Shown here one piece after another: positions 25,925-59,543 of a stretch of DNA of 64,000 bases. The translations under genes and the position numbers were made by a program. Source of the DNA: Kondoa subrosea (Eukaryota); contig BCIN01000001.1 of NCBI GenBank assembly GCA_039545335.1, forward strand, positions 3,227,136-3,291,135, written 5' to 3'. Position 1 is the stretch's first letter. Each line of letters opens with the position of its first letter. Under the pieces are notes generated by a model. That model was given only the letters and a program-made list of their open reading frames with translations. It was not told the DNA's origin and ran no database searches.

Positions 25925-26231
25925 GACTTATGTCTGTCACCAATACTGGACACGAAGCAGCTGGATCCTGCAAGAACATTTATACACTTTCATTTCGATA
26001 CATCCACACAAGCCGCGGACACTCTACAATCATTTGTGTGCTTTAATTTATATATAGCAGTGCCCATAGTAGTATTAATGCAGTAGCTATCACTTCCCAA
26101 TTGCTCTGACACCTCGACGCGACTCTGATGATTTCTCGCCTCTTCTCAAGCAACGTCGAATACCTGAGCTTGGTTGTACATTTCACGACATAGATGCCCT
26201 CATAACGAATATACCCCCTTTCAGCCTTGAG

Positions 26232-29200
26232 ATGAGTGCCATAAAGCGTAAACGCTCAGCTAGGATTGCCAGCCAAGATCCAGTTCAAGAGGAAGTTGCT
26301 ATCAAACGAAGTAAGGGCTGCTGTCTGTTCAAATATCTGTCTCTTGTTCTGATGTATGTGTATGTGTTGCTAGCTACTACGAAACCTTCAACGCCCAAGA
26401 CAGCTAAAAGAGCAACTTCACACAAACCTGTTCAAACACCTCGTACCAATAATAGCAAGAAAGCAAAGACTCCTTCTCAAAGAACACCACCAGCTACAGC
26501 TACCAAAGCTACTACAGTCTTACCTATACCTGTACTAGAACCAGATAGTTCTGCGGATGATGAATTGCTTCTTGTTGGACCTTCTGAGCTGTTCAGATCA
26601 GTACCGAGATCTACAAATACTACTACTGCTAGAAAGAGGAGAAGAGTCGAGGTTGAACAACGATGTGGGAGTGTGGCTTCTACTTTGAGGAAAGTTAGAT
26701 GGTCTCGATTAGGGGAAATGACCAAAGAAGAGTCGGAAGAAGTACCTGAAGATACTTTTGCTTTCAACAAGCATACTTCGAAACCTGTGTCCATGTTGAA
26801 TCATAAAGGCAAGCAGAATGAAGTCGAACAAGAACAGGATAGTGCTAGACCTGCTTCGATCGAACCTGTCCAGCAAGAGGAAGAAGAAGGCAATGCCAAC
26901 GACGGAGATTTCTCTTTCGCCCCTTTGGATGAAAGTGTTCAATGGCAAGAGGATGATTTGCCTGTTCAAGAAGTAGCGGAAGATGAATTACCTCCTCCGC
27001 TAGATCTGGGCACGCAGAAAGAACAACCTAGAATTTATGATTTCAGCAATGGAGATGCTGATGATCCTTCGTCTGATGATGAGCAAGAAGTAGTACAAGC
27101 GCAGACAGTCGAAGATGCAGCTGTTCAAGATTCCAAAACCTCGCCAAAAGCACAGCGCGCTACTTCTTCCCCTATTTCACCCATGCTTGATATTGAAGAT
27201 ATACCGGAGACTGAAGATCAACCGTCATTCTTTGCTTCAGATTCGATAGAAGATGTTTCGCAACCTATTCTGCAGAATGATTTGCAGCAATACCCTTCGC
27301 CCAGGGTAGAAGAAGTGCCTGATGAAGCGGGAATTGATCCATCAGTCATTTCACCAATGGTTCAGCGGAGTGAAGAGCAATTCGAAGATGCTGGAATGTC
27401 TCAAGATACGATCATTGAATCCGAATCATCTTCGCCTGTTCGGCCTCCGCATGCGGAAGCTTCTCATTCTCTCTCCTCAGACATCTCTACTTCTGAACCC
27501 CCAAATGTGCAAGTGGACTCGACCGCGCAATCTGCTTACCAGGTAGAAACTTTCACCTTTGAAACAACGACTACTACTACTACTCAGGTTGTGTACGAAA
27601 GTCAACCGCCATTGGAATCCGTCATGCTTCCTACGTCCTCCAGATCTGCTTCCAAATCGCGAAGTACCACTCCTTTCCTTGATCAGCTCAACTCAGCTTC
27701 ACCAGATTCACCTTACCTCTCAGCTGAACCTTCTCCTTTTAGACGCAATTCAGATCTGGAGGTCACTCTTGCTCCAGCTGCCGCAATTCCAAGATTGAAA
27801 TCCGTCAGTCCTGTACCTCATCGTTCTCCCTCACCTTTCAGTCCCACACCGCCAGAGCCAATCGCTTCAACCAGCCAATTGCCGTCTTTCGACGAAGCTG
27901 AAATTGATCTACTACCTGAAGAGCAGGGCGATATCTCACCTGATTCAGCTTCGCAAATTACCGCTAATCCGGAAGCCGCCATTCCAGCGCAAAAACCCTT
28001 CACTTTCTTGTCGCCTATGCAAGAGATCCCTTCCACTTCTGCTCGACAACGTACACCTGAACCCGTTCAACCGATTCTACGAACTCACACAACGCTAACG
28101 AGTCCTTTTAAATCGCCCAGAAAATCCGCAAGTGAATTACAAGCTATGTTATCCAAATTGAGGTCACCTATCGCTCCTGGTTCGTTCTCTGGATTATCAG
28201 TTACTTTGGAGAATAGAGTTCGTCAGCAGTCTATACAGCAGGAAGAAGTGCAGCCTGAGAAAGCAGCGGAGATTGGATTGGAGAATAATTTTAGGCCAAC
28301 GTCTTCGCCTGAACAGCCGCCAGCACGGGATCAAAGTGTCGAGCAAGATCCTGCAACAGAGAAGGAATTCGAGGAGCCTGGCACTCAATGTTCTGCGATA
28401 TCTATGCACAGGAAGACTCCATCACTCCAAGTCGCTTCGCCAAAGCGCAATATACTTCCAGCTCGCTCCTCTTTATACTCACCATTTCAGCTGCGCAAAT
28501 CTCCTCAAGCTGCGGTTACAGACTTGCCTGAAGCAGGGCCATCTCATACTTCGACACCTCAATCCCGTACTCCTCAGCCTTCTGCAACTCGTATTGATAG
28601 CCCAGCACAACCTGAGATCCCTCAATCACCTGCACCTGTTACACCTCCGACTCGCTTTACCTTTGGTTCATTGGAAGACTCAGCCGGATCAAACAGCACT
28701 ATCGATTCAGATGCTCAAACACCAGAAAATGGCTCTCTGTCCAGATCTACACGTCAATTAATCTATGATATCGTCTCTTCGCCTTCCGCGGGAATCATGT
28801 CATCACCTCAGTCCTCCGTAAATCTCAATCTGGCTCATCTTCGCATGCAATCCTCAACAAGATCAGAAAGAGTTGCTCAACCATCACCTTTGTCGCAAGC
28901 GAAGAGCAACAAGTTTACCAGATATGAATCACCTAGCGATAGAAGATCGAAAGTTACTGAAACGGATATCAGGTTGCACGATCCTGACGCTTCGGATGAA
29001 GAGGAAGCAATTGGAGGCACGTTGAAGATGCGAGCTGGGACGCCTATAAGGGCAGAAGAGAAGAAAACTAGTCCTTCTCCCAAATTACCCAAAAGGCGGA
29101 AAGTGGTTGAAAAGGAAGTTACATCAGATCCTCCTGTAGCTTTGGTCGACGAAGAAGAGCAAGAGGAAGATGATTTGACAGAGGAGCATTCTACTACTCT

Positions 29201-30399
29201 ACATGGTACGGTATCGCTAGGCTGCGCAATGCGAAGTAGCTAATGGGCACACAACAAACAGATGAAATAATTTCTGCTGAATTGGATGATCCATCAGTCA
29301 CCAATTCGCCCGGCCTGCCGCATCATCACGATACTCGACCTCTGTCAGAAAGTCCAACTGAACACCGTGCAATATCTCACGCGGCTGTTCCACGTGAAAA
29401 ACCTTCCTCTCATCCTCCTCGACTATTAGAAACGGTTTCACCTAGAACTCTTGATAAAGAATGGTCAAAGACGGCTCTTGCTCCTGGGACAGTCGCAGCC
29501 CGAACCAAAGCTTTTGAAGAGACAATTGCAGCTTCAACCTCACCTCCGTCCAGTCTCTCCCACATTTCTCCTCGACCAGCCAAAGTGGACTTGCCCAAAA
29601 GAATTCGAGCAAGAACGGAAAGTATAGATATCAAGCCTTCCTCAAATCTTCTACAAGTAGTACGGCAACATCGAAAGAGTCGTTCTCATTCTCATAGCGC
29701 TGATCTGACGCATCTGTTCGAGAATTCAAGAGACAAGACCGAAGCTGTAGTAGAGATCAGAAGTTCAGATCCGAAAGCTGCAGCAAGAGTAGCAGCTATT
29801 CTCAAAGTCCACCACGATTTTGTGGCTCAAGAACCAGCAGCCATAGCAAGTCGACATGATCATTACCGAGCGGAATCGCCAGCGCTAGATGGTCTACTTC
29901 GAGAGGCTGAAGTGTCTGTCATCTCTGAAGTGGACCAACTTTCGTTGTCGAGAATGAGAAACTCGCGCTCCCCTCGTCCTTCGATCATTCCACCTCATCC
30001 TGTCAGAAATTTCAATGAATGGTCCAAATCAGATTGGAGGAAACTTGAAAGTATATTGAAAGATGCTCAGAGACAGGCTTACGAGGAAGCTGTGGATCAG
30101 CCAACTGTGGAGAGTGTAGTCGATGACTTTATCGAAAGTGAGAACCTGGAAGATCAGGATCTTGTTGGTCACTGGCAAAGGTGCGCTTGCTGTTCAAATG
30201 TTCTGCATTCGACTTATGTCCAAGGTCCAGAGCCAAGCTTGAATTTCGTGTTCAAGCTCTACTCAAGACTCGTTGCCAGCCTCGACTTCTTGCATTCCTG
30301 GATTCGCCTTCTGGCTCGCCTGTCCCTTCTCATCACTCTCGCGCTTCTTCTGTTGCCTTTTCAGCGTATGATGGACCGGAAACCGTTAAGCGCGACTGA
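26232..30399 (+). CDS. Large Ser/Pro/Glu-rich, mostly disordered hypothetical protein (~1300 aa)
   Basis: ORFs 26232-29243 and 29243-30409 joined by short introns. Basic NLS-like N-terminus. Compact C-terminal motifs VVEIRSSDPKAAARVAAILK and WSKSDWRKLE. Confidence 0.75.
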
Positions 30400-40085: not shown

Positions 40086-40445
40086 GATGCGTGCGAGATT
40101 TCAAGAAAAAGGGCTATTCGACAGAATAACGGCAAGGATAGAGCTATAGCAGTGAAGTATGAGGACACTCCGTATAGAATTAGGGAGCGTGAGTCTATAG
40201 CACGTCCTGCAAGGAATCGCAAAAGGCGGGGAAATGCAAAGCTTTCAAGAAAATAGAAGAGAGGAGAGTCTGATAGCTAGTCAGCTTGATACGCTCGGAA
40301 GGCACAGCGACACGCCGACAGCTGTGAGAGATGATGAAGGAGGACTTCGCGGTTGAGCCAAACCTTGTTGAAAATGTCATTTTGCGCTTGTCTTCAGGCG
40401 ATCACCCTAAAGCCAGAATAATACCCCTGCAAGTGGTGTATAACC

Positions 40446-42028
40446 ATGGACATTGACGATGGATCTGACTTGGATGACTTCATTGTGGATGATAACGAGC
40501 TGAATGCAAGTTCTGGAGCGAGAAAAGGCAAAGATGTAGAGCGAGGTGGGGCAGATACAAGACGAAAGAAGCATGCAGCTCAAGCGCAAGGTGGTAATGG
40601 TGACGAATATTCATGGGAGGGAGCGTTTCAGCGAAGTTGGGATGTTGTGCAGGAAGACGCTTCTGGGAGTTTGGCTGGTGTAGTGAATGAGTTTGTGGAA
40701 AAGAGCAAGCGGAGAAGATTGATGCGCGATACGGATACGATTCAAAGAGGTCTCATCAGACATCTCTACCTGGTGTTGGATCTTTCGCTAGCTATGACCG
40801 ATCGAGATTTACGACCTTCAAGATTGGAACTCTCTGTACAATATGCTCAAGAGTTCGTCAATGAGTTCTTTGATCAGAATCCTATCTCGCAATTGGGTAT
40901 TATTGGCATGAAGGACGGGATAGCCGAAAGGATCAGTCCGCTGAGCGGTTCGTCCACCTGCCATTCTCGTGTTTCTGTCTTCATGTACGTACAGGTAACT
41001 CTGTGGAGCATATCAAAGCGCTGCAAAACAAACGAAAACTTGAACCATCGGGAGAACCTAGTTTACAGAACGCGCTCGAAATGGCCAGATCCAGTTTGGC
41101 GTATGCTTCTTTGGCAGGTGTCCTCTGTATTTTCTCACACTCTATACAGTCATCTACCTTCTCACGGCTCTAGAGAAGTCCTCGTCATCTTTGGCTCATT
41201 GACGACTTGCGATCCTGGAAATATCCATAACACGGTTTCCGCTTGCATGAAAGACAAGCTGCGTATAAATATTATTGGATTATCAGCAGCTATGGCAATT
41301 TGTCAAACGATAGCAAAGCAAACAGAAGGTCCGTAGTACGGCCATGCAAATCAACATATGACTGATTAACAAGCGTTGTTTTGGACAGGCTCCTATGGTG
41401 TTGTTGTGAATGAAGCACACTTCAAAGATCTCCTCTTCGAATCCGTTCCACCACCAGCCTCATCATCATCTCACATTTCCTCATCCCCTTCCAAGTCAAC
41501 TACCGCACCGGGATCAGATCTCATGCAAATGGGTTTCCCAACCATGTTATCAAACACGCAATACCCAACTTTATGTTCCTGTCATTCGAAATTGAAATCC
41601 AACGGTTTCATCTGTCCGAGATGCAAGAGTCAAGTTTGCGAAATACCAACGGAATGCGGAATTTGTTCCTTGACTATTGTCTCGAGTCCTCATTTGGCTA
41701 GAAGTTATAGACATTTGTTCCCTGTCAAGAATTTTGTGGAAGTGGAATTGTCAGTTGCTCTTTACATCAATGTAGCTTGTTTCGGGCTAATGAGAGAAAT
41801 CAAATTGACAGACCTCTGGATCAGAATGCAGTCAAGGAATGTCATGCTTGCGCTCATGCATTCAGAGAAGTGATCCTCTCTTCCGACGGAACACAAGAAG
41901 TAAACGCAGAAGAACAAGCTTTGAGCGCAACAGGCAGATACGCTTGTCCTTCATGCAGGAAACATTTCTGTTTGGATTGCGATACTTTTATACATGACGT
42001 TTTAGCAGTTTGTCCTGGTTGTCATTAA
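40446..42028 (+). CDS. SSL1: TFIIH core subunit Ssl1/p44 (vWA + zinc finger + RING-like)
   Basis: GLIRHLYLVLDLS..DLRPSR..EFFDQNPISQLGII, SLTTCDPG, CPRCKSQVCEIPTECGIC..SPHLARSYRHLFP, and CLDCDTFIHDVLAVCPGC. Confidence 0.96.
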
Positions 42029-48967: not shown

Positions 48968-51900
48968 TCATTGGCGCGTAGCTGTCAATTACATGTGCTC
49001 AGAGAACGAATCACACACGGTTCAAACACAACTCACAATCTGCTAGCGAAGCATTGGGTACACCGGTAAGCATAGCGATCAAAGCAGGTTCGCCTGCAAG
49101 CAGGTCCAATGCTACTTTAGCGCCACCTGTTCGAGAGATAAGGATCAACCAGAAGTGACACACAACAAGCTAACCAATAATTTTGACTAATTCGTTGACT
49201 TTGGCTCTCCCATCTGCTCTTGAGATGGTCAATTTTAGAGCTTGACATTGACGACAGCTCGATGTAGCGCAAGTAGCAACAGCTGCCTTATAAATCGATA
49301 CCTGATGAGGATCGAGGTTATCGTCGGTGCGCAATGCTTTGTGAGCGTTGTGTATTTTCTTCCGAATAATTAGTGTATGAGGTGACCGTCCCTTGACTGT
49401 TTCCGTGGTGATGAAACCCATACGGACCAGGTGGCTAACAGCCTTCTCGAACCTTGTTCGTGCCGCTTGAACTGCGGAAATACGGACACAATGTTCTACC
49501 GAACTTCGAAGAAAGTCATTGAGGTTTATTCTTCCCTCGATAATATTGGTTGGTACACCGGCAAGAGCCATATTCAGCGGAGATGAGGTAGCCGGTCCCA
49601 AGAATGTTCTCGCACTCAAAGAGAGCGCTTTGCGTGCGAAAGTTGCTACGGGTGCCCGAGTGAAAGGACATGTGTGGGCTTCCACGACTGGCCGAAGAGC
49701 AAGTAGAAGTGGTTGACAGATACTTGATAGATCGCCTTGATTACTGGGAGCAAATCGACCGAGTAGATTTGCTGCCAGCACAGATTTGTGGTTTCGCAGG
49801 CAAAGATCAACGAGCTTCACCAATCTCTGTTGCATATTGTAGGAAATGCAGAGAAATACATAGCTTGTGACTCACCGTAACATTCACAGATGTTGCATCT
49901 GTATTCAGAGCATGTCTCCAATTTACACCAGACGGTGCCGACTTCCATCCAGGATCTGACACTGGCGGCCAGACATAAGAGGTCGTAAGGCGCTGTAATT
50001 CCGAATGGATGAAAGACAGCATGTTTTGATCTACGCTTTCACCAGCCACAGAAATTGCTTTATTTTGAAGTTCTTCAAGCAGAGGCAGGCGATGATCAAG
50101 TCCCAATTGGAATACTCGATTGATGACTTTCGCTTCCACAGAAGACCATCCAAGGAGATCAATCAACGCTAATAAATCATCGAATTCCGTGCCAGTTTGA
50201 ATTGAGTTCCATAGGGAAGCAACTTGAGTGGATAGAAAATTTGCCATATCTGGATCAGAATGGAAGACTTGCATGAGTTCTGCTGTGAGCTTGACACCCA
50301 AAGTCCGATGTGTTACTGCTATCGAAGGATTCGCACGTGCTTTCTGCCCAATTTGGCGATATACTTCTTTGAGACTGAGGAGCAGCATTCAGTCATCGTA
50401 AGGAAGTATAATATGTTCACTTACAAGCCGATACAATTTTCGAGCGGCGAACCAGCAACACTCTGAACAATGTCGGGAATAGAAGAAGCTTCAAGTTCTT
50501 TTTTCGCTAGCAGTTGTTGAGTCATTGACCGGAGATAGCTTTGCGCGTCCATATCATGATTGTAGAAGGCTTGCGCTTGTTTCGCCAGCTGGAAAGCGGT
50601 AGAAATCTGTTCCTGCTCTGGCGATTGTGTGGGACGCGGACCATACTGATGGTGCGGCTGAGCCACGGTCGGCGGTGTCAAAGCTCGAACGAAGACCGAG
50701 TCCAAGCTTTGTCAGGGTCAGTCAGCTGAGCATACTTTTAAGTTGAAGCAGGAACGCACATTTTTCTGCTGACATCGAAATCTAAGCCTTTGATGATGTC
50801 TATAGCTAAAGCCAGATCTTCTGTTTGCAACTCTGCTGCAGCCAGCACCTATAGTTCACGTTAATCCTTTCTCGCTCTCATATGGGGAGCATTGACCTCA
50901 ATCATAGCCGAACTACACCAATCTTGGATGTCTTCGCTGGCTTCCTCAAAAGAATTGCATAATGTTGTAAGGAAGGCATAAAGGCTTTTAACAGTATCTT
51001 TCTTCTTTAGCTGATGTCTCGTGGTCATATGAAAGTACGTTGGTCCAGCCGACGGAAGAAGCATAAGTTGCACGGCTTGATGTAAACTAAATACAGAGCA
51101 ATCAGCATCGATGTTTGAAAGAAGAAGAGAGTGATTTACTGATTCTTGACAACATTGAAGGTGAAAGTGTCGATCGCTTGTGTCCACAGCGCTTGCTTTA
51201 TGTTCGGATGGCACTTCGATCGCGACAGAACCTGATCAAATAAAGCGAATCTTCTCCCAGCTAAAGAAGCCTCCAACAAGGTTTCGCAACATCCAGTACG
51301 AAAGGAAATGTCAAAATGGTGGATATTGTCCAGCAGATCGGAAGCTATTTCGCCTTCAGTCGAGTCTCGGATGCTGAGAATCCGTGCAGTCTCTTGCTTG
51401 ACCATCTGATTGATTGCCTCGTCGGAAGAGCTACTGAGCATGATCTCGAGGTCCTCTTCAGCTGGCCAAAGTAATACGATAGAGCGGTAGAAGAAATGCT
51501 CAACCTCTTCTGAATTTGAAGATTCGTCGTCATATTCCGGTGGATCTACAGGGAAGCGAGGATAAAGGTTATCACCATCGAAATTGAGAGTTTTGAGATC
51601 AAGAAGCCTTCCATCCATTTTAGAAATGCCTTCTAGAGTATACGTTCTCTCCTGCTCTTCTGCCATTTCATAGACTCGCTCTTCCCTTGCCTGCTCGCAT
51701 TGATAACAATCGCCGTAGCACTTCCATCTTCCGCAACCCTCGTCGTCGTCGCCATACCCATATCTATCTTCCGCTGGACCGCTGATAGTCACTTTGAGTC
51801 TGCCAACCGATATTTGAAAACCCAGGTCTGAGGCCAAGGAACTGAGATAGTCGACTTTTATCTTGGCCAAACCTTGCAGATCGTGAAAGGTAGGTGACTG

Positions 51901-52911
51901 CACGCAATATTGTTCCGATAACATATGACCAATGAATTGAGGTGCATCACCAACTTCATTTCGTCGCACGATCCATTGCTTCAACTTATCGGATAATTCA
52001 AGCATTCCTGATGACGCTACTGGCGCTCGGGGAATGCTTGTATCAAGCCCAGTCCATTCGAGAGCGTATTGCAGACTCAAACGAGCACCGGAAGTGATTG
52101 GCTCTTGGTGACGTCGAAGTCCAGAGTCTAGTATGAAGAATATGGGTTTTAATAAGATTTGCGAGCATGATGAGCAGAATATGATGACGTACAGGAGCAC
52201 TCGTAAGCTGATCCAAAGGCAGAATTCTGCTGACAATCGAAAGTGATGGTTTTGCCTTGATGTTCTGCTCACCGAGAGAAACATCATGCACAGGTCGACT
52301 TTGCGCCTAGAGGACTCACCAACTGATACAGATCCTCCTGAGAACTCAGTCGGGAGGAAGATATTGACCGTAGCGAAGAGCTTGGGCTGCAGTTCACCTT
52401 GGGGTGTTGTTGCAGTACCGCGTTGCAGCAATAGTCTTTGCAAAACTAGACGACACAAAGATTGATTACATCCAAGACCATTCGCCAGTTGTGGTAGCAG
52501 ACGCGTTATTACCCATTGACTAAAGGCTTGATTCCGAAGCTTGATCTTGTTTGCGCTAAACACGCAGGAATTGCTTGCGCTACTTTGTGTAATACGATCT
52601 ACGTCTCTTGCACTCAATGGCAGTCCAAACGCGCCTAGATCTTCGCCCTCAAGCTCCAAGCCAGGATTCGGCATGTCCTCTAAATTGCCATTACACGAGA
52701 ATTTGCCTTGTACAGCAGATTCGAAAGCTGTGTCCAGTAGCTCCGATACTTCTTCTCCCCAAGGTGTATTGCCTTCATCGTCCTCGGTCCAAGGTGCGTC
52801 TTCATCGTCCGGCGCCTCTTCCCCTTGATGCCGCGGAGGAGGCATAGCCGCACGAGCTGCCATCATTGCCAATTGCTCTCGCGGAGTCAGCTTGTGCAGC
52901 GCAGCGGCCAT
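48968..52911 (-). CDS. Degenerate 2OG-Fe(II) oxygenase-like protein (copy 2)
   Basis: PNPGLELEGEDLGAFGLPLSARD, FATVNIFLPTEFSGG, EPITSGARLSLQYAL, FYRSIVLLWP and TETVKGRSPHTLIIRK. Collinear with copy 1, including intron positions near the 3' end. Confidence 0.78.
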
Positions 52912-53135
52912 AGGTTCCCTCAATTATCGAGAGCAAGAAGAAAAACAATGTGTAATTTCGGACTTGTCTTGAATCAGCCGTGTCGACTAACAGGGGTCTA
53001 CACTGAGTGTATACCTAATTGTGTCTGTGAATTGGTACCGACGCGACAGAGCATTTGTGAAGCTCGAAGCAAGATTTATGTGGTTCGAATGAAAGAATAG
53101 AAAGGCCTGTGACTCAAAGTCTATACCCTGCTATC

Positions 53136-56100
53136 ATGTCTGTGACCTGCATCTCGAAGATACTGCAAGCAAGCAAAAGAGAAGGCAATGGCTGGTCCAA
53201 TGCAACAGAAAATGAAAGACCGCATCATTTCGGACCAAGTGTCGCTTGTGAGTACTCTTACTGGATGATCAGTGCCGTCGTAATGATCCTAATCTCAGCT
53301 GTAATGGGTCAAATAAAGTCTTCAAGGGATGTCTCGCAGTTCTGTCAAGTTATCCTCGATACACCTAGTAAGTTGTCAAATTTCCAACTGTTGAGAAGCC
53401 TCATCTTGCAGTGCCAGGATACCAGAGACCTTCAGATACTCTTTTGTGCTACGAATCAGCTATACCTACCTTCATTCAGATGGCATCACATTGGCCAAAA
53501 GACAAGTACTCTCCTGCACCGCGACCAGTCTTCGATCTCGTGCCTACATCAGAACCAGGCTTTAGGGCTTCTGTAGTCCTTCCTAGACTATCATGGATAA
53601 AAGATATGGAAGTGAGACGTCTAACCGGACCAATTCTACCCACAAAGAAGCTCGCTCGTCAAGGTATGTACTAGCCTCGCTTTGCACAGTGCGACGCTCA
53701 AGAGATTGACAGCTATAGCATTCTACGCCTGTAGAATAATGCATGCCTGGGCAGCGCCTCAGCATGTGTTTTCCGACAATTATGATCCTGATTCTCCGTC
53801 CAATGTTGATCTTACGGCGGACAGCGAAGCAGCAGATCTGTCGCCAGTCGCAGAAGAACATGCAAGTATCTTTCCTAACCCGTTTGGCTTCCTGCAAGAT
53901 CCGACTGAACGTCTATATCTACACAATCTCCGCTTTCTTTTCTTGGATGGCTCATCAGAACATCTCGGTATCATCACTGCGAACAGGATTCAATCTGCTA
54001 TGCCATTTTCCCTGAATAGTCCTGTTCTTGCAAGTATGGAACTTGTTACATCTGTAGAATTGCAATGGCAAGGAGAAGAACGACTTGAACGGTTACAAAT
54101 CTGCGAGAGCTTCACTAGAACAGTAGTACAAGTCATCCTCAATCGTAGACCCACAGAGACGCCATTCTTTCACTTACTTGTTCCTCTTTTGCCAGCAGAA
54201 CCGCTTGAAATTGACTGGGAAATCGCAGTGACACCTTTCAGCCCGCTGATTGACTCTTCTACCATCACAGAAGGTAATCTTATCGTCGTCCCTTTCTCCC
54301 GCATGCTTGTTTCTCGCTTGTTTACTTGGAAGGAATGCCGCTCTGAACTTTCAATGTCGAGTCCTTTGTTAGAACATCACCCAGTCAAGCACAAGAAGAG
54401 ATTTTGGGATTATCAAGGACTTTTCATGGTTGTCTATCAGTTCACAGACCTCCCTTCCGATGATCAGCTTATTCAGCTTTCACCTATTCTTGATCTCACA
54501 GCTTCTTTCGCCGAAGCCAAGATAGCAAGCACTAAAGAGACCAGGGATGAGATTGTGCCTTTCTCAAAATGTAGAAGCAGCAAGCTTTCGTGGAAATTCC
54601 TGCAGGCAGTACATTCTATGCCAACTTGGATCAACAATCTTTACACCGCAGCAAGATCGCAACGAGCTGTAGAATTGCTGAATTTACAGCGCCTGGACCC
54701 TGTTTTCGCTCAAATGGCTTTGACTTTACCTTCCTGCGGGACAGGAAGGGATTACGAAAGTCTGGAAACTCTAGTGAGAAATCAAATCCCTATTCAGAGA
54801 ATTCTGTATTTCTGACGACGTATTGATGTTATAAAGGGCGATTGCTATCTGAAACTTGCAGTATCAGTTTATGAATATCAAAGATACCCTCAAGCAGCTG
54901 AAGGCGTTCTAGCAATGATGCGAACTCGAAGCACCGATAACCAATTCTTGCGCAAGAAAGCCATAGAGCTAGATCTAGCTAGTCATATCATGACTGAACG
55001 ATTCCAGAACAAGACTTGGATCCCTTCTTCTATCGAGTGAGCTTATTTTGACCGCTTTCAATCTTCAGCTGCCAACTAAAGCTTGCTATGGCAGAGAAAC
55101 GCAATTGCTCGAGCAAGGTCGAAGATTGGAACGCGTGGTACCACGAAGAGCACTATCAGATTGTATTGAAGCTCTGATTGGTGCGGGCTGGTTGAGCGGC
55201 ACAAACGATATCGCACTTGAAGTTGGTCATTCTCTCAAGATGTGTTTTGGTGGATCTACACCGTGGCACAAAAGACCGATCGCACTTGCAAGCAATGCTT
55301 TATTAGCCTGTGACTCAGCTCTGGAAGTAAAACCCTTAGAAGTAACCCTCGGCTACAGCTTTCGTAATGCAAAATTGCTGCAAGAGGCTCTTTCACATCA
55401 AACTTGGGCTATCTTGCGTCCTGATGAGCCTACGTATGAAAGAATGGAGTGAGTGAGCAGTGCAGACAATACATTTGACTAATCTAGCTATGTAGGTTTC
55501 TCGGGGATGCCATTCTCGATGTAAGAGATATACTCTGTGTGATAACCGCTTTGGTGTACTAAATGTCACTTAGATGTTTGCTTCTGAATACTTGATGGAT
55601 TACTTTGGACCATTCTACATCACTCCAAGTCAACTAAGTCGACTCAAAGCGATCTGCGTATGCAATGGTACGGCAGCTTACTTATCGGTCAATCGTCTCC
55701 AACTACACAAATACATCAAACATGCAAAGCCTGAATTGGATATTATCTTTGCCAAAGCAGAAGAACAAGCCCGTCTACTACAAATTGACGATTTCCATGA
55801 GCACTGCTGGAAGTGGGAACCGCCGAAAGAGCTATGTGATGTCTTCGAAGCAGTCATTGCCGCCGTTTTCGTAGATTCGGGATACCGCCTGAACGTTGTC
55901 TTTGATGTTTTGCGAAACATCTACGGCGATATTATGACAACGTTGCGAATTGATGTGTAAGTTGATTGGCTTTATATCAAGAGCAATAGCTTATGCCATC
56001 CGCAGTGCTGCTGATCCGTGAGCTTACTAATACCGTTCAACGCTTAGCTGAATGAAACATTTTCATAGCGCGTCTCGATTGCGTGAATTTGTTTCCCGCA

Positions 56101-56525
56101 TGCGTTGTCGCGATATCTTGGTCGCCATCACTTCATCATTCACAACAATGGATGATCCTGCTGTCTATACTTGTGTGGTTACGCTGCACGGCCTCAAGCT
56201 TGCAACCAATACGAATCCCAGTCAAGTCACTGCAAGGCAATTGGCTTGTAAAGCTGCGGTAGAAGCTCTCGAAAATATGTCCGAAGAAGAAGTCAAGCTT
56301 CGCTGCAGCTGTTCGCCGAAGTCCTTATCGAAGAAAGGTCACTGGCAGCTACGCAAATCAAGTGCAACAACGCTGCAACCTGAACGTATGCTCTCTGCAC
56401 ATCTTGCCTGCGAGGCAGCTCGCTGATATTAGTCAGCAGAAGTCAAAGGAGATGTGGCAGCTGCTGCTATCGACGCGCCTATCGATGCTCAATCGCATAA
56501 GAGGAGCTGGTGTACAATCTGCTGA
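53136..56525 (+). CDS. Dicer-like RNase III: DUF283 - central region - RNase IIIa - RNase IIIb - dsRBD, no helicase
   Basis: DUF283-like RASVVLP..GPILPTKKLARQ.AFYAC. RIIIa DYESLETL|GDCYLK..LSDCIEALIGA. RIIIb TYERME|FLGDAILD..KELCDVFEAVIAAVFVDSG. dsRBD YTCVVTLHG..ARQLACKAAVEAL. Confidence 0.9.
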
Positions 56526-56683: not shown

Positions 56684-59543
56684 TCATGAAAGCGTTGATT
56701 CAGCTGCAACTTCTATTGCTGACTTTGCTGCTGGATTATCTGGCCTGACATTTCCACCTCCTCGTTCGCCAGCCGCTCTTATACCTATGCTGCCAACATT
56801 TGCGGTTCTCATTGGTTTTGGTGCACCAGGTTTAGACTTTGGACCAATACCAAAATAAATGGAGATCCACTCCCTAGCGAAAATTTCGCCGAAGCCTGAA
56901 AGGATAGCCATCAACGCAAGCCAGAACACTAGTAGGAAATCAAAACGAACCTAGCATGACTCCGTTGACAAAGGGTAAAAAGAGATTCACGCCCAGACTC
57001 GCAAGAATGGTGAAGACTCTTCTTCTCCAAGGCACAGACGGTGAATTCATGTTATTGAAGATAGACATAGTAAGGGAAGGCGCTTCAGGTTGTGGTCCTG
57101 ATGCTTGGGATTCTGGCATGACTTTGTCCATAAAATCGGGAAAGTCTGGTATAATGGGTTTCGACAAGTCTTCATCGGAATCGGAATCGTGCGCTTGAGA
57201 GATGCCTCTTCTGTTTGGTCTAGGAGTTGCATCCACGGAAACAGGTTCAGAGATGGACTTTTCGTTTGTAGAGGACGTGGAAGCTATTGATTGGGAAGAT
57301 GTGAACAGATCGTGAATAGGTGCGACTTTCGCAAGAATCGGTGATTCATCATCCGCTACACTTGCTAATGATATTGCTGCCATATCGTCTTCAATTGCTT
57401 GTGACGCAGCAGTAGATGAGTCAAGCGCAGTTGTGCCATCACCTTTGATAGCTCCCTTCACAGAGACTGGGGTAGGCTCTTCTAAATTTGGGTCCCAGTT
57501 CGCTGATATACGCGACATAGGCAGAAGTTCAGATGACCCTGCCTGCAGATTCTGTTGCGCTTGTACTGTTGCTGAGCTCTTCTTGGGAGTTTCTCGTAGA
57601 GGCTCGCCAGAAGAAAGTTGTAAATCCGGATCCTGCTGATCTTCTTGCACAGAGTGAGGTTCGGTGTCAGTAGTAAATGGCTGAGATGCGTCGTCTACTG
57701 GCTTAGAAGTATCTGCATGCAATTGAGAGGAAGGCTTGGAGGAAAGTTGCAAATCTGCGTCTGCTTGATCGTCTTCTACTGTTTTCGGTTCTTTAGTGTC
57801 ATTTGCTCCGTGGAGCGTTCTTTCAGACGACAGTTCCAGATCAGTGTCCGTTTGTCCTGACCTGGCAGAATGAAATGTTGCGGTGGTTGCAAATGATGCA
57901 GGAACATCGTCTTCTTGCTCTGGAGGAGAAGTTTGGAGGGAATTTGTAGATGATGAAGGAGAAAGATCAGCTTCGTTCTCTTGCATTGGCTGCGAGTCTT
58001 GAGCTGCTTCTGGATTTCTACTGACCGCTGGACTTTCTCGCGATGGTTCTCCTCTTGACAGTTGCAAATCTGCATCGGCATGTTCTTCCTCTACTGGATG
58101 AGCGGGTGTATCGGTTGTGAGAGGTTTGGCGATATCTTCTTCTACCTCCTTTGGCGATTCTTTGAGGTCTTCTGGATTGGCAAGTGACAGATCCACATCC
58201 GCATCCTCTTTTTCTTCAGATTCCTGCTCCGCTTCAACAACTTTCGGACTTTCCCTTAATGGTTGACCGGAAGATAGTTTTAGATCTGCATCCTCTTGTT
58301 CTTCCTTGACTACATGTACTTCTGCATCGTCCATCAAAGGCTTGCTGATATCTTCTTCTTGTTTTGCTGGTGGATCAACCAGAGAAGAAGGAGCAGCAAG
58401 TGTGAGATCTTGATCTTCCATCTCATTCGTACCTTGTTGTGCAACAGTTGAAGTAGTTGGATCAGAAAGTGAAAGAGAAGTGAAAGATAATGACAGGTCA
58501 GGATCTTGATCTTTTACTTCTGTACTAGTCACAGCGGTATGACTAGTTATGAACGGCGAAGAAGCGTCTTCTGCTGGTCTGGCGGGCGGGTCAGATAATG
58601 AAGAAGGATTGCTGAGTTGTAAATCAGCATCGTTTTCTTCATTCGTTTGACTAGTGGTCAATTGGTTCGATACAGGAGGTTCATCTAAAGGCCTGGAAGA
58701 GCTTGAGAGCGAGAGGTCAGGGTCAGTTTCTTGCTGCAGGTCAGTTTCCTCTTGCGATTCACTGGTGAATTTATTCTCGCTCGTGCTGTGATTTGAAAGA
58801 GAGACAGAAGCAGGTTGATCAAGAGACTTTCCAGATGACAGTGATAGATCAGCATCTGCTTGTTCTGAAGAGTCCTCACTCGGCTGCACTGAAGTATGAG
58901 AAAGTGTCGGATCTGATATAGCTTTTCCGCTCTTCACTGAGTTTCCTTCGGTTATAGAAGAATTGACTTGCGAAGACAAGGTTTCTACGGCAGGTTGTTC
59001 AGAAGATGGAACTGAGGAAGGCTGAGGCTCTGAGTTTGAAGCAACCGAAGGTACATCGAGTTCTTTTGATGCAGATGCCTCCATTTGTGGATCAAGTTCT
59101 TCCATTGTAGTGCTGACAGGCTGCGCGGCTTGATCAGATTCTGGAGCATCTTGCGTAGGTGAACTTTCTGAAACGCTATCCACAGGCCCTGGGGTAGGCT
59201 CTTCAACCTTTGGCTGTTCTTCAGTCTTGGAAGAAGAGTCCGTTGGCTGTTCTATGCTCTCTTTGACAGGTAGACGTTCAGGCGGACGATTGTCCTGCAT
59301 TTGCTCGAGCGCATCTCCATTGACAGGCTTGGATTCGCTTGACGATTCAGATGTGCCCTATACGGGTAGTGAGTGTTGAGACTAGAGACATCAACTGCAG
59401 GCTAAGCTCACATTCTCGCTTTCATCATGACTTTCTTCAGCTTTGTCCAATGCAGCGACCTGTTGGCCCTTCTGTTTCTCTTGAAGCTCTTTTATCTGAG
59501 CTGCACTTGGCCTCTTCTTGTGTTTCCTATGGACTGTTGGCAT
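56684..59543 (-). CDS. Mim1/TOM13 mitochondrial outer-membrane insertase domain preceded by an ~800-aa acidic repetitive extension
   Basis: C-terminal SLGVNLFLPFVNGVMLG|FGEIFARE is the Mim1 signature. The upstream 786-codon ORF is in the same frame with no stop, and a first exon MPTVHRKHKK splices in frame. Confidence 0.75.
57580..58870 (-). repeat. 12 degenerate protein-level repeats with core D[A/P]DL[S/Q/K]LS
   Basis: DADLSLSSG, DPDLSLSS, DADLQLSN, DPDLSLSF, DQDLTLAA, DADLKLSSG, DVDLSLAN, DADLQLSRG, EADLSPSS, DTDLELSS, DADLQLSS, DPDLQLSSG. Confidence 0.85.

Follow-up and report, generated by a model that had tools for sequence, protein, structure and literature searches.

The window analysed here, a 64,000-nucleotide stretch of contig BCIN01000001.1 from Kondoa subrosea, carries a Dicer-like gene whose product would end in the prenylation motif CTIC if a putative last intron is removed. 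The probability of a farnesylated Dicer-like protein with this end is put at about 0.4, with splicing, lipidation and location each being predicted steps. A farnesylated protein is the likeliest single outcome, because CTIC, with Ile at a2 and Cys at X, is accepted by farnesyltransferase. What is directly observed is which domains the gene holds, that the named elements lie in its sequence, that the tail is coding-like in composition and that CTIC is competent in a yeast reporter. A CaaX end on a Dicer, and from it a possible membrane anchor, had been proposed in an earlier note on this DNA.

53136..56525, plus strand: Dicer-like gene, own model of 10 exons, start ATG at 53136.
53248-53298, 53368-53411, 53664-53718, 54774-54836 and 55037-55094, plus strand: predicted introns of this gene.
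55449-55495, 55521-55573, 55957-56068 and 56386-56436, plus strand: further predicted introns, of which the last is putative.

The model was built by enumerating GT..AG introns that leave one frame open, and the chosen set comprises the sole combinations with a single open frame across the RNase III motifs. The eight introns upstream of the putative terminal one measure 44-112 nt, and introns in the window are short in general, with CTRAY branch sites. The start codon and the two introns nearest to it are predictions of the model. The 112-nt intron before the dsRBD exon (55957-56068) can alternatively be read as two introns, 55957-56005 and 56018-56068, which enclose a 12-nt in-frame micro-exon (56006-56017); both readings preserve the frame. 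The predicted protein has about 951 residues with the last intron removed and 935 with the intron retained.

53483..53662, plus strand: Dicer dimerisation (DUF283) domain, Pfam PF03368, residues 24-83 of exon 53414-53662.
53721..54773, plus strand: 351-residue middle exon at the position of platform, PAZ and connector, no family recognised.
54837..55036, plus strand: core of RNase III domain a, PF00636; the domain runs on into exon 55095-55448.
55574..55956, plus strand: RNase III domain b, PF00636; it starts in exons 55095-55448 and 55496-55520.
51136..52923, minus strand: 595-residue open frame, divergent gene upstream, with no Pfam family.

Judged by its domains, the locus is a member of the Dicer lineage (class 3 RNase III). 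This assignment follows from RNase III domains a and b, the Dicer dimerisation domain, a dsRBD and matches to Dicers in the PDB. PF03368 scores 24.7 bits on exon 53414-53662 (E 2.3e-05), just over its cut-off of 23.7, and PF00636 reaches 35.9 bits in domain a and 39.8 bits in domain b against a cut-off of 27. In both RNase III domains the acidic catalytic motif residues are intact on inspection of the translation by eye. The best PDB matches of the RNase IIIb exon are the RNase IIIb regions of Dicers, headed by Drosophila Dcr-1 (8dfv_A, E 2.3e-06) and followed by mouse and human Dicer and Arabidopsis DCL1. For the middle exon, Pfam gave nothing at E up to 10, and in the Atlas its best match, at 0.84, fell among unrelated families, with none at 0.85. 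A Pfam search over the gene found no N-terminal DExD/H helicase, and DUF283 begins after about 60 residues of the modelled protein; since the 595-residue frame on the opposite strand lies about 200 nt from the Dicer start, there would be no room for a helicase region. The predicted enzyme is thus a non-canonical Dicer, with the helicase absent, which the earlier note had missed, and PAZ undetectable. Its domain order would be Dicer dimerisation domain, unrecognised middle region, RNase IIIa, RNase IIIb and an extended dsRBD with the fungal C/H/CxC pattern.

56069..56385, plus strand: dsRBD exon with a CHCC-type pattern, C13 at 56106-08, H40 at 56187-89, C79 at 56304-06 and C81 at 56310-12.

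A C-terminal dsRBD is supported by a weak Pfam match together with its Atlas placement. The exon scores 18.9 bits with Pfam dsrm, under the cut-off of 23; its first Atlas match, at 0.90, shares 172 features and lies in a cluster of which 95% carry dsrm, and all ten of the ten best family-bearing matches share one family or clan. The CHCC-type residues lie in the contexts MRC (C13), TLHG (H40) and RCSC (C79 and C81), giving the spacing C-X26-H-X38-C-X-C with Leu39 right before the His. In the extended dsRBD of S. pombe Dcr1 the spacing is C-X36-H-X37-C-X-C, and the dsRBD there likewise follows RNase IIIb, with the Cys after helix 1, the His before strand 3 and the C-x-C after helix 2 (Barraud et al. 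2011, PMC3199388). The likeness to S. pombe Dcr1 drawn in the earlier note is therefore borne out in order and in rough spacing: the distance from His to C-x-C is 38 here and 37 in Dcr1, whereas that from Cys to His is 26 here and 36 in Dcr1, ten residues shorter. According to the same description, the CHCC motif is known in 39 dicers and the position just ahead of the His is hydrophobic in every one except that of S. pombe, so that the Leu of the present protein resembles the other CHCC dicers described there (PMC3199388). The resemblance holds at the level of sequence and concerns a known family feature; the zinc site is putative. A phmmer search of the exon against the PDB returned no matches at E up to 10, and an AlphaFold run without alignment over 56070-56423 gave an all-helical, unusable model (mean pLDDT 39.7).

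The predicted protein is strongly diverged, and word-based searches do not reach canonical fungal Dicers. In a collection of 5.8 billion proteins, a homologue search with the middle exon (53718-54773) gave no matches among 3581 candidates, and word-based homologue searches gave none from 591 candidates for exon 55096-55446 and none from 124 for the RNase IIIb exon. With the dsRBD exon, phmmer run exhaustively over 1.84 billion representatives gave two matches, with no Dicer and no self-match among them; one is an animal-type multi-dsRBD protein and the other an SRCR-repeat protein, so neither was kept as an orthologue. The sole match of the RNase IIIb exon, a metagenome locus, covers 26 residues only, lies among bacterial-looking frames and was set aside as spurious. 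A Dicer-lineage enzyme that lacks a helicase and has three exons without relatives is noteworthy in its own right.

The surroundings of the gene seem rich in lineage-specific genes. Of ten long ORFs tested, nine have no Pfam match with E up to 0.001, among them one of 1054 residues (26079-29243); the sole one with a match is a TFIIH Ssl1 frame (40422-41336), whose scores are slightly higher with fungal Ssl1 chains than with human p44. Taken with the short introns and their CTRAY branch sites, this suggests a fungal organism. An 805-residue frame on the minus strand (56940-59357) converges on the 3' end of the Dicer-like gene. Its translation is strongly acidic and rich in Ser and repeats a motif of the type D-A-D-L-Q/S-L-S-S. 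The frame may run via a short intron into the frame 56684-56950, which would leave about 160 nt between the stop codons.

56386..56436, plus strand: putative terminal intron of 51 nt (54 nt with the acceptor at 56439), phase 1, donor GTATGC at 56386-56391.
56422-56427, plus strand: its branch site GCTGAT, with branch A at 56426 and CTGAT 10 nt from the AG at 56436.
56431-32, 56435-36 and 56438-39, plus strand: candidate acceptor AGs.
56424-56426 (TGA) and 56430-32 (TAG), plus strand: in-frame stops inside the putative intron.

The donor, the branch site, the AGs and the C/H/CxC residues named in the earlier note are all present where it had placed them, and its three translations, with CEAAR, CTIC and CSIA ends, are correct. 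If the intron stays in, the dsRBD exon reads on to ..LACEAAR and stops at the TGA 56424-56426. Splicing from 56386 to 56436 or 56439 keeps the frame and leads to ..DAQSHKRSWCTIC, and a Cys at the fourth-last residue holds only if this intron is removed.

Introns were scored by position weight matrices for donor and acceptor plus a term for the branch match, in a leave-one-out scheme trained on 26 hand-picked introns that link open frames of the window, of which the Dicer-like gene supplies 11. The training introns have a mean score of 17.54 (sd 2.67), a scale that is somewhat circular because they were picked partly on the same features. The candidate terminal intron scores 18.61 with the AG at 56436, above 16 of the 26 training introns, 17.31 with 56439 and 13.41 with 56432. 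A score of 18.61 is also attained by decoy donors, with nine instances in 19.5 kb of long ORFs read in sense (0.46 per kb) and 35 on their antisense strand (1.8 per kb). A simpler pattern, GTRNGN..CTRAY..YAG with a length of 44-130 nt, occurs 126 times on both strands of the window; the Markov expectation is about 63 per strand, or about 1 per kb, so the window is not enriched. Splice signals alone are weak discriminators here and no better than chance. In long ORFs this simpler pattern occurs once in 23.1 kb of sense strand as against 12 times in 21.2 kb of antisense strand, a depletion that suggests selection against cryptic introns in exons.

The choice of acceptor has a counterpart within the same gene. 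Intron 55449-55495, which is required for the continuity of the RNase III motifs and the RNase IIIb signature, has a branch distance of 13 and skips an AG 5 nt past its branch A, which makes it plausible that the AG at 56432, 6 nt past the branch A, is skipped as well. An RNA-family scan over the intron gave as its lone match SNORD34, located elsewhere and sub-threshold (20.8 bits against 38), and the RNA fold z-score over the intron is 0.51. On balance the terminal intron is probably removed, with the acceptor at 56436 or 56439, as far as can be read from the DNA.

56437..56525, plus strand: putative last exon of 28-29 codons and a stop; CTIC at 56511-56522, stop TGA at 56523-56525.

In the spliced form the tail extends about 50 residues beyond the C-x-C and ends in ..HKRSW-CTIC. 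Its codon usage lies above chance and is coding-like. With codon log-odds trained on 14 long frames of the window, the 27 tail codons at 56439-56519 score 0.236 bits per codon, a value inflated by the Ala-rich composition; coding windows have a mean of 0.231 (sd 0.188). Among stop-free windows, 3.3% of those read off-frame or antisense score at least as high, as do 9.4% of those from DNA that lacks long frames. G occupies codon position 1 in 48% of the tail codons and in 31% of the coding training set. The 13 codons translated under retention score -0.015 bits per codon, the last 28 codons ahead of the donor -0.07, and the Dicer exons only 0.10-0.14. The openness of the tail frame is uninformative, since frames are open for at least 28 codons at 29% of positions in ORF-poor DNA.

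With the AG at 56432 as acceptor, the reading frame changes and the product ends in ..RRAYRCSIA, with a stop TAA at 56498-56500. The earlier note had offered this second CaaX-like end as an alternative; its translation is right, but use of an acceptor only 6 nt past the branch A is unlikely, given its score of 13.41 against 18.61 and the non-coding codon usage of the frame that it opens. That frame scores -0.49 bits per codon, a value reached or exceeded by 99.4% of the null, and because it does not look coding the CSIA end is treated as chance. Its tail is rich in Arg and Cys and resembles a Ras hypervariable region. CSIA with its stop (56486-56500) and CTIC with its stop (56511-56525) lie 25 nt apart in different frames. 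A tandem duplication behind the twin ends was considered and rejected, because 53.5% of shuffles score as high as the local alignment (12) and Tandem Repeats Finder reported no repeats. That both splice variants end CaaX-like is an unexplained coincidence.

In CaaX motifs a Cys at X points to farnesylation and a Leu at X to geranylgeranylation. All 8000 Cxxx ends have been tested on yeast Ydj1, and the rule drawn from that screen places the main restrictions on D/E/K/R at a2 and on K/P/R at X, while Ras-based data mark Ile at a2 as a positive determinant (Kim et al. 2023, PMC10320760). CTIC, with Ile at a2 and Cys at X, passes this rule. Its enrichment factor (EF) in the Ydj1 screen is 0.90; the non-prenylatable control SASQ stands at 0.132, the canonical controls CVIA and CVLS at 0.406 and 0.494, CTIM at 0.63, CTIS at 0.73, CTIP at 0.13 and the CTK series at about 0.1-0.15 (PMC10320760). 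The claim that the motif is a farnesylation signal is thus upheld for the rules of the yeast enzyme: an EF of 0.90 indicates that yeast farnesyltransferase can use CTIC, by an indirect read-out on another protein in another species. A Cxxx end in itself says little about selection, because yeast farnesyltransferase takes most Cxxx sequences (PMC10320760). Among 1995 frame ends in the window, 80 (4.0%) have Cys at position -4 and 48 (2.4%) pass the permissive Cxxx rule. Under a strict CaaX-like rule (a2 = I/L/V/M, X = A/S/M/Q/C/L) nine of the 1995 remain, CTIC and CSIA among them.

In the preferred reading, splicing most likely takes out the last intron (phase 1, 51 or 54 nt), which would put a flexible tail of about 50 residues ending in CTIC behind the C-x-C. 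The protein would be farnesylated and would probably undergo cleavage and methylation too, as is usual for CaaX proteins. A farnesylated Dicer-like protein would sit peripherally on membranes of the ER or the nuclear envelope. The membrane-anchor idea depends on one predicted splice in one genome.

That splice is the point at which an only somewhat unlikely reading enters, in which there is no terminal intron, the protein ends in ..LACEAAR at the TGA 56424-56426, positions 56427-56525 are 3' UTR and the CaaX end is an artefact. Chance does produce splice-like signals of equal strength at 0.46-1.8 per kb, the stop codon in question shares its letters with the branch motif, and open frames of the length of the tail are found at 29% of ORF-poor positions. 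Against this stand the downstream codon usage, which lies at the coding mean and is rare in non-coding windows, the score of -0.015 for the 13 retained codons, and the length, donor, branch and branch-to-AG distance of the candidate, all typical of introns in the window. If the splice is granted, the CTIC end may still be a lineage-specific accident in a fast-evolving tail, either unmodified or modified without a role in the site of dicing; this reading as a whole is unlikely. A chance ending is plausible and the default expectation, because the stretch beyond the C-x-C varies in both composition and length among CHCC dicers (PMC3199388). The permissive ends at 2.4% of frame ends in the window and the acceptance of most Cxxx by the yeast enzyme (PMC10320760) agree with an accident, as does the presence of just three basic residues (H, K, R) ahead of the motif, while the rarity of strict CaaX-like ends (9/1995) and a long tail whose composition appears linker-like, as in known CaaX proteins, argue for a signal.

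A decaying, truncated Dicer paralogue without function, for which the C-terminus would be irrelevant, is very improbable. The absent helicase, the unrecognisable PAZ, the three exons without homologue and codon scores of 0.10-0.14, below the window coding mean of 0.23, would fit decay, but a single open frame runs over 9-10 exons, the acidic residues of the catalytic motifs look intact by eye in the two RNase III domains, and these as well as the Dicer dimerisation domain clear their Pfam cut-offs. Quite improbable, too, is a use of the last intron as a membrane switch, in which retention would give a soluble protein ending in ..CEAAR, splicing a farnesylated one ending in ..CTIC at the ER or nuclear envelope, and the acceptor 56432 a second lipidation end, CSIA. 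Such a switch would parallel the p42 and p46 isoforms of OAS1, and with CSIA in use a lipidation signal would close each of two reading frames here. Dicing would then be brought to membranes at which mycoviral or other dsRNA arises, or the lipid would stand in for the protein-mediated perinuclear retention reported for S. pombe Dcr1.

Canonical fungal Dicers, such as DCL-1 and DCL-2 of Neurospora, consist of an N-terminal DExD/H helicase, DUF283, two RNase III domains and a C-terminal dsRBD. The protein described here has DUF283, the two RNase III domains and the dsRBD in common with them, and the helicase is missing. The Dicer of Giardia is a natural helicase-less Dicer with a PAZ domain and no dsRBD; both enzymes lack the helicase, whereas the present one has a dsRBD and PAZ is undetectable. 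S. pombe Dcr1 has about 22 residues after the C-x-C and is not known to end in CaaX, and its perinuclear retention is reported as protein-mediated. It differs from the present protein in possessing a helicase and in its shorter end, as about 50 residues follow the C-x-C here. In known cases, Dicer is positioned in the cell by protein partners or by its dsRBD. A farnesyl anchor, if real, would couple dicing directly to membranes.

Among the papers listed by full-text literature searches, judged by titles and abstract openings, none describes a prenylated or lipid-anchored Dicer. In Arabidopsis, a farnesylated HSP40 (J3) is described in membrane-bound RISC; there too a farnesyl group ties small-RNA machinery to membranes, but it is carried by a chaperone acting with AGO1 and not by Dicer (PMC6204899). 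The closest analogue in logic to the proposed anchor is human OAS1 p46, a dsRNA-recognising antiviral enzyme with an isoform-specific CaaX motif, CTIL, which is necessary and sufficient for prenylation, and whose endomembrane targeting raises antiviral activity (Soveg et al. 2021, PMC8357416). CTIL and CTIC differ in the last residue alone. OAS1 p46 is a nucleotidyltransferase and not an RNase III, it is geranylgeranylated (X = Leu), and its prenylation is experimental, whereas that of the Dicer-like protein is only predicted. A Dicer with a CaaX anchor, if real, would be a combination of known kinds and not a new kind of system, and the precedent of OAS1 p46 shows that prenyl targeting can decide antiviral potency.
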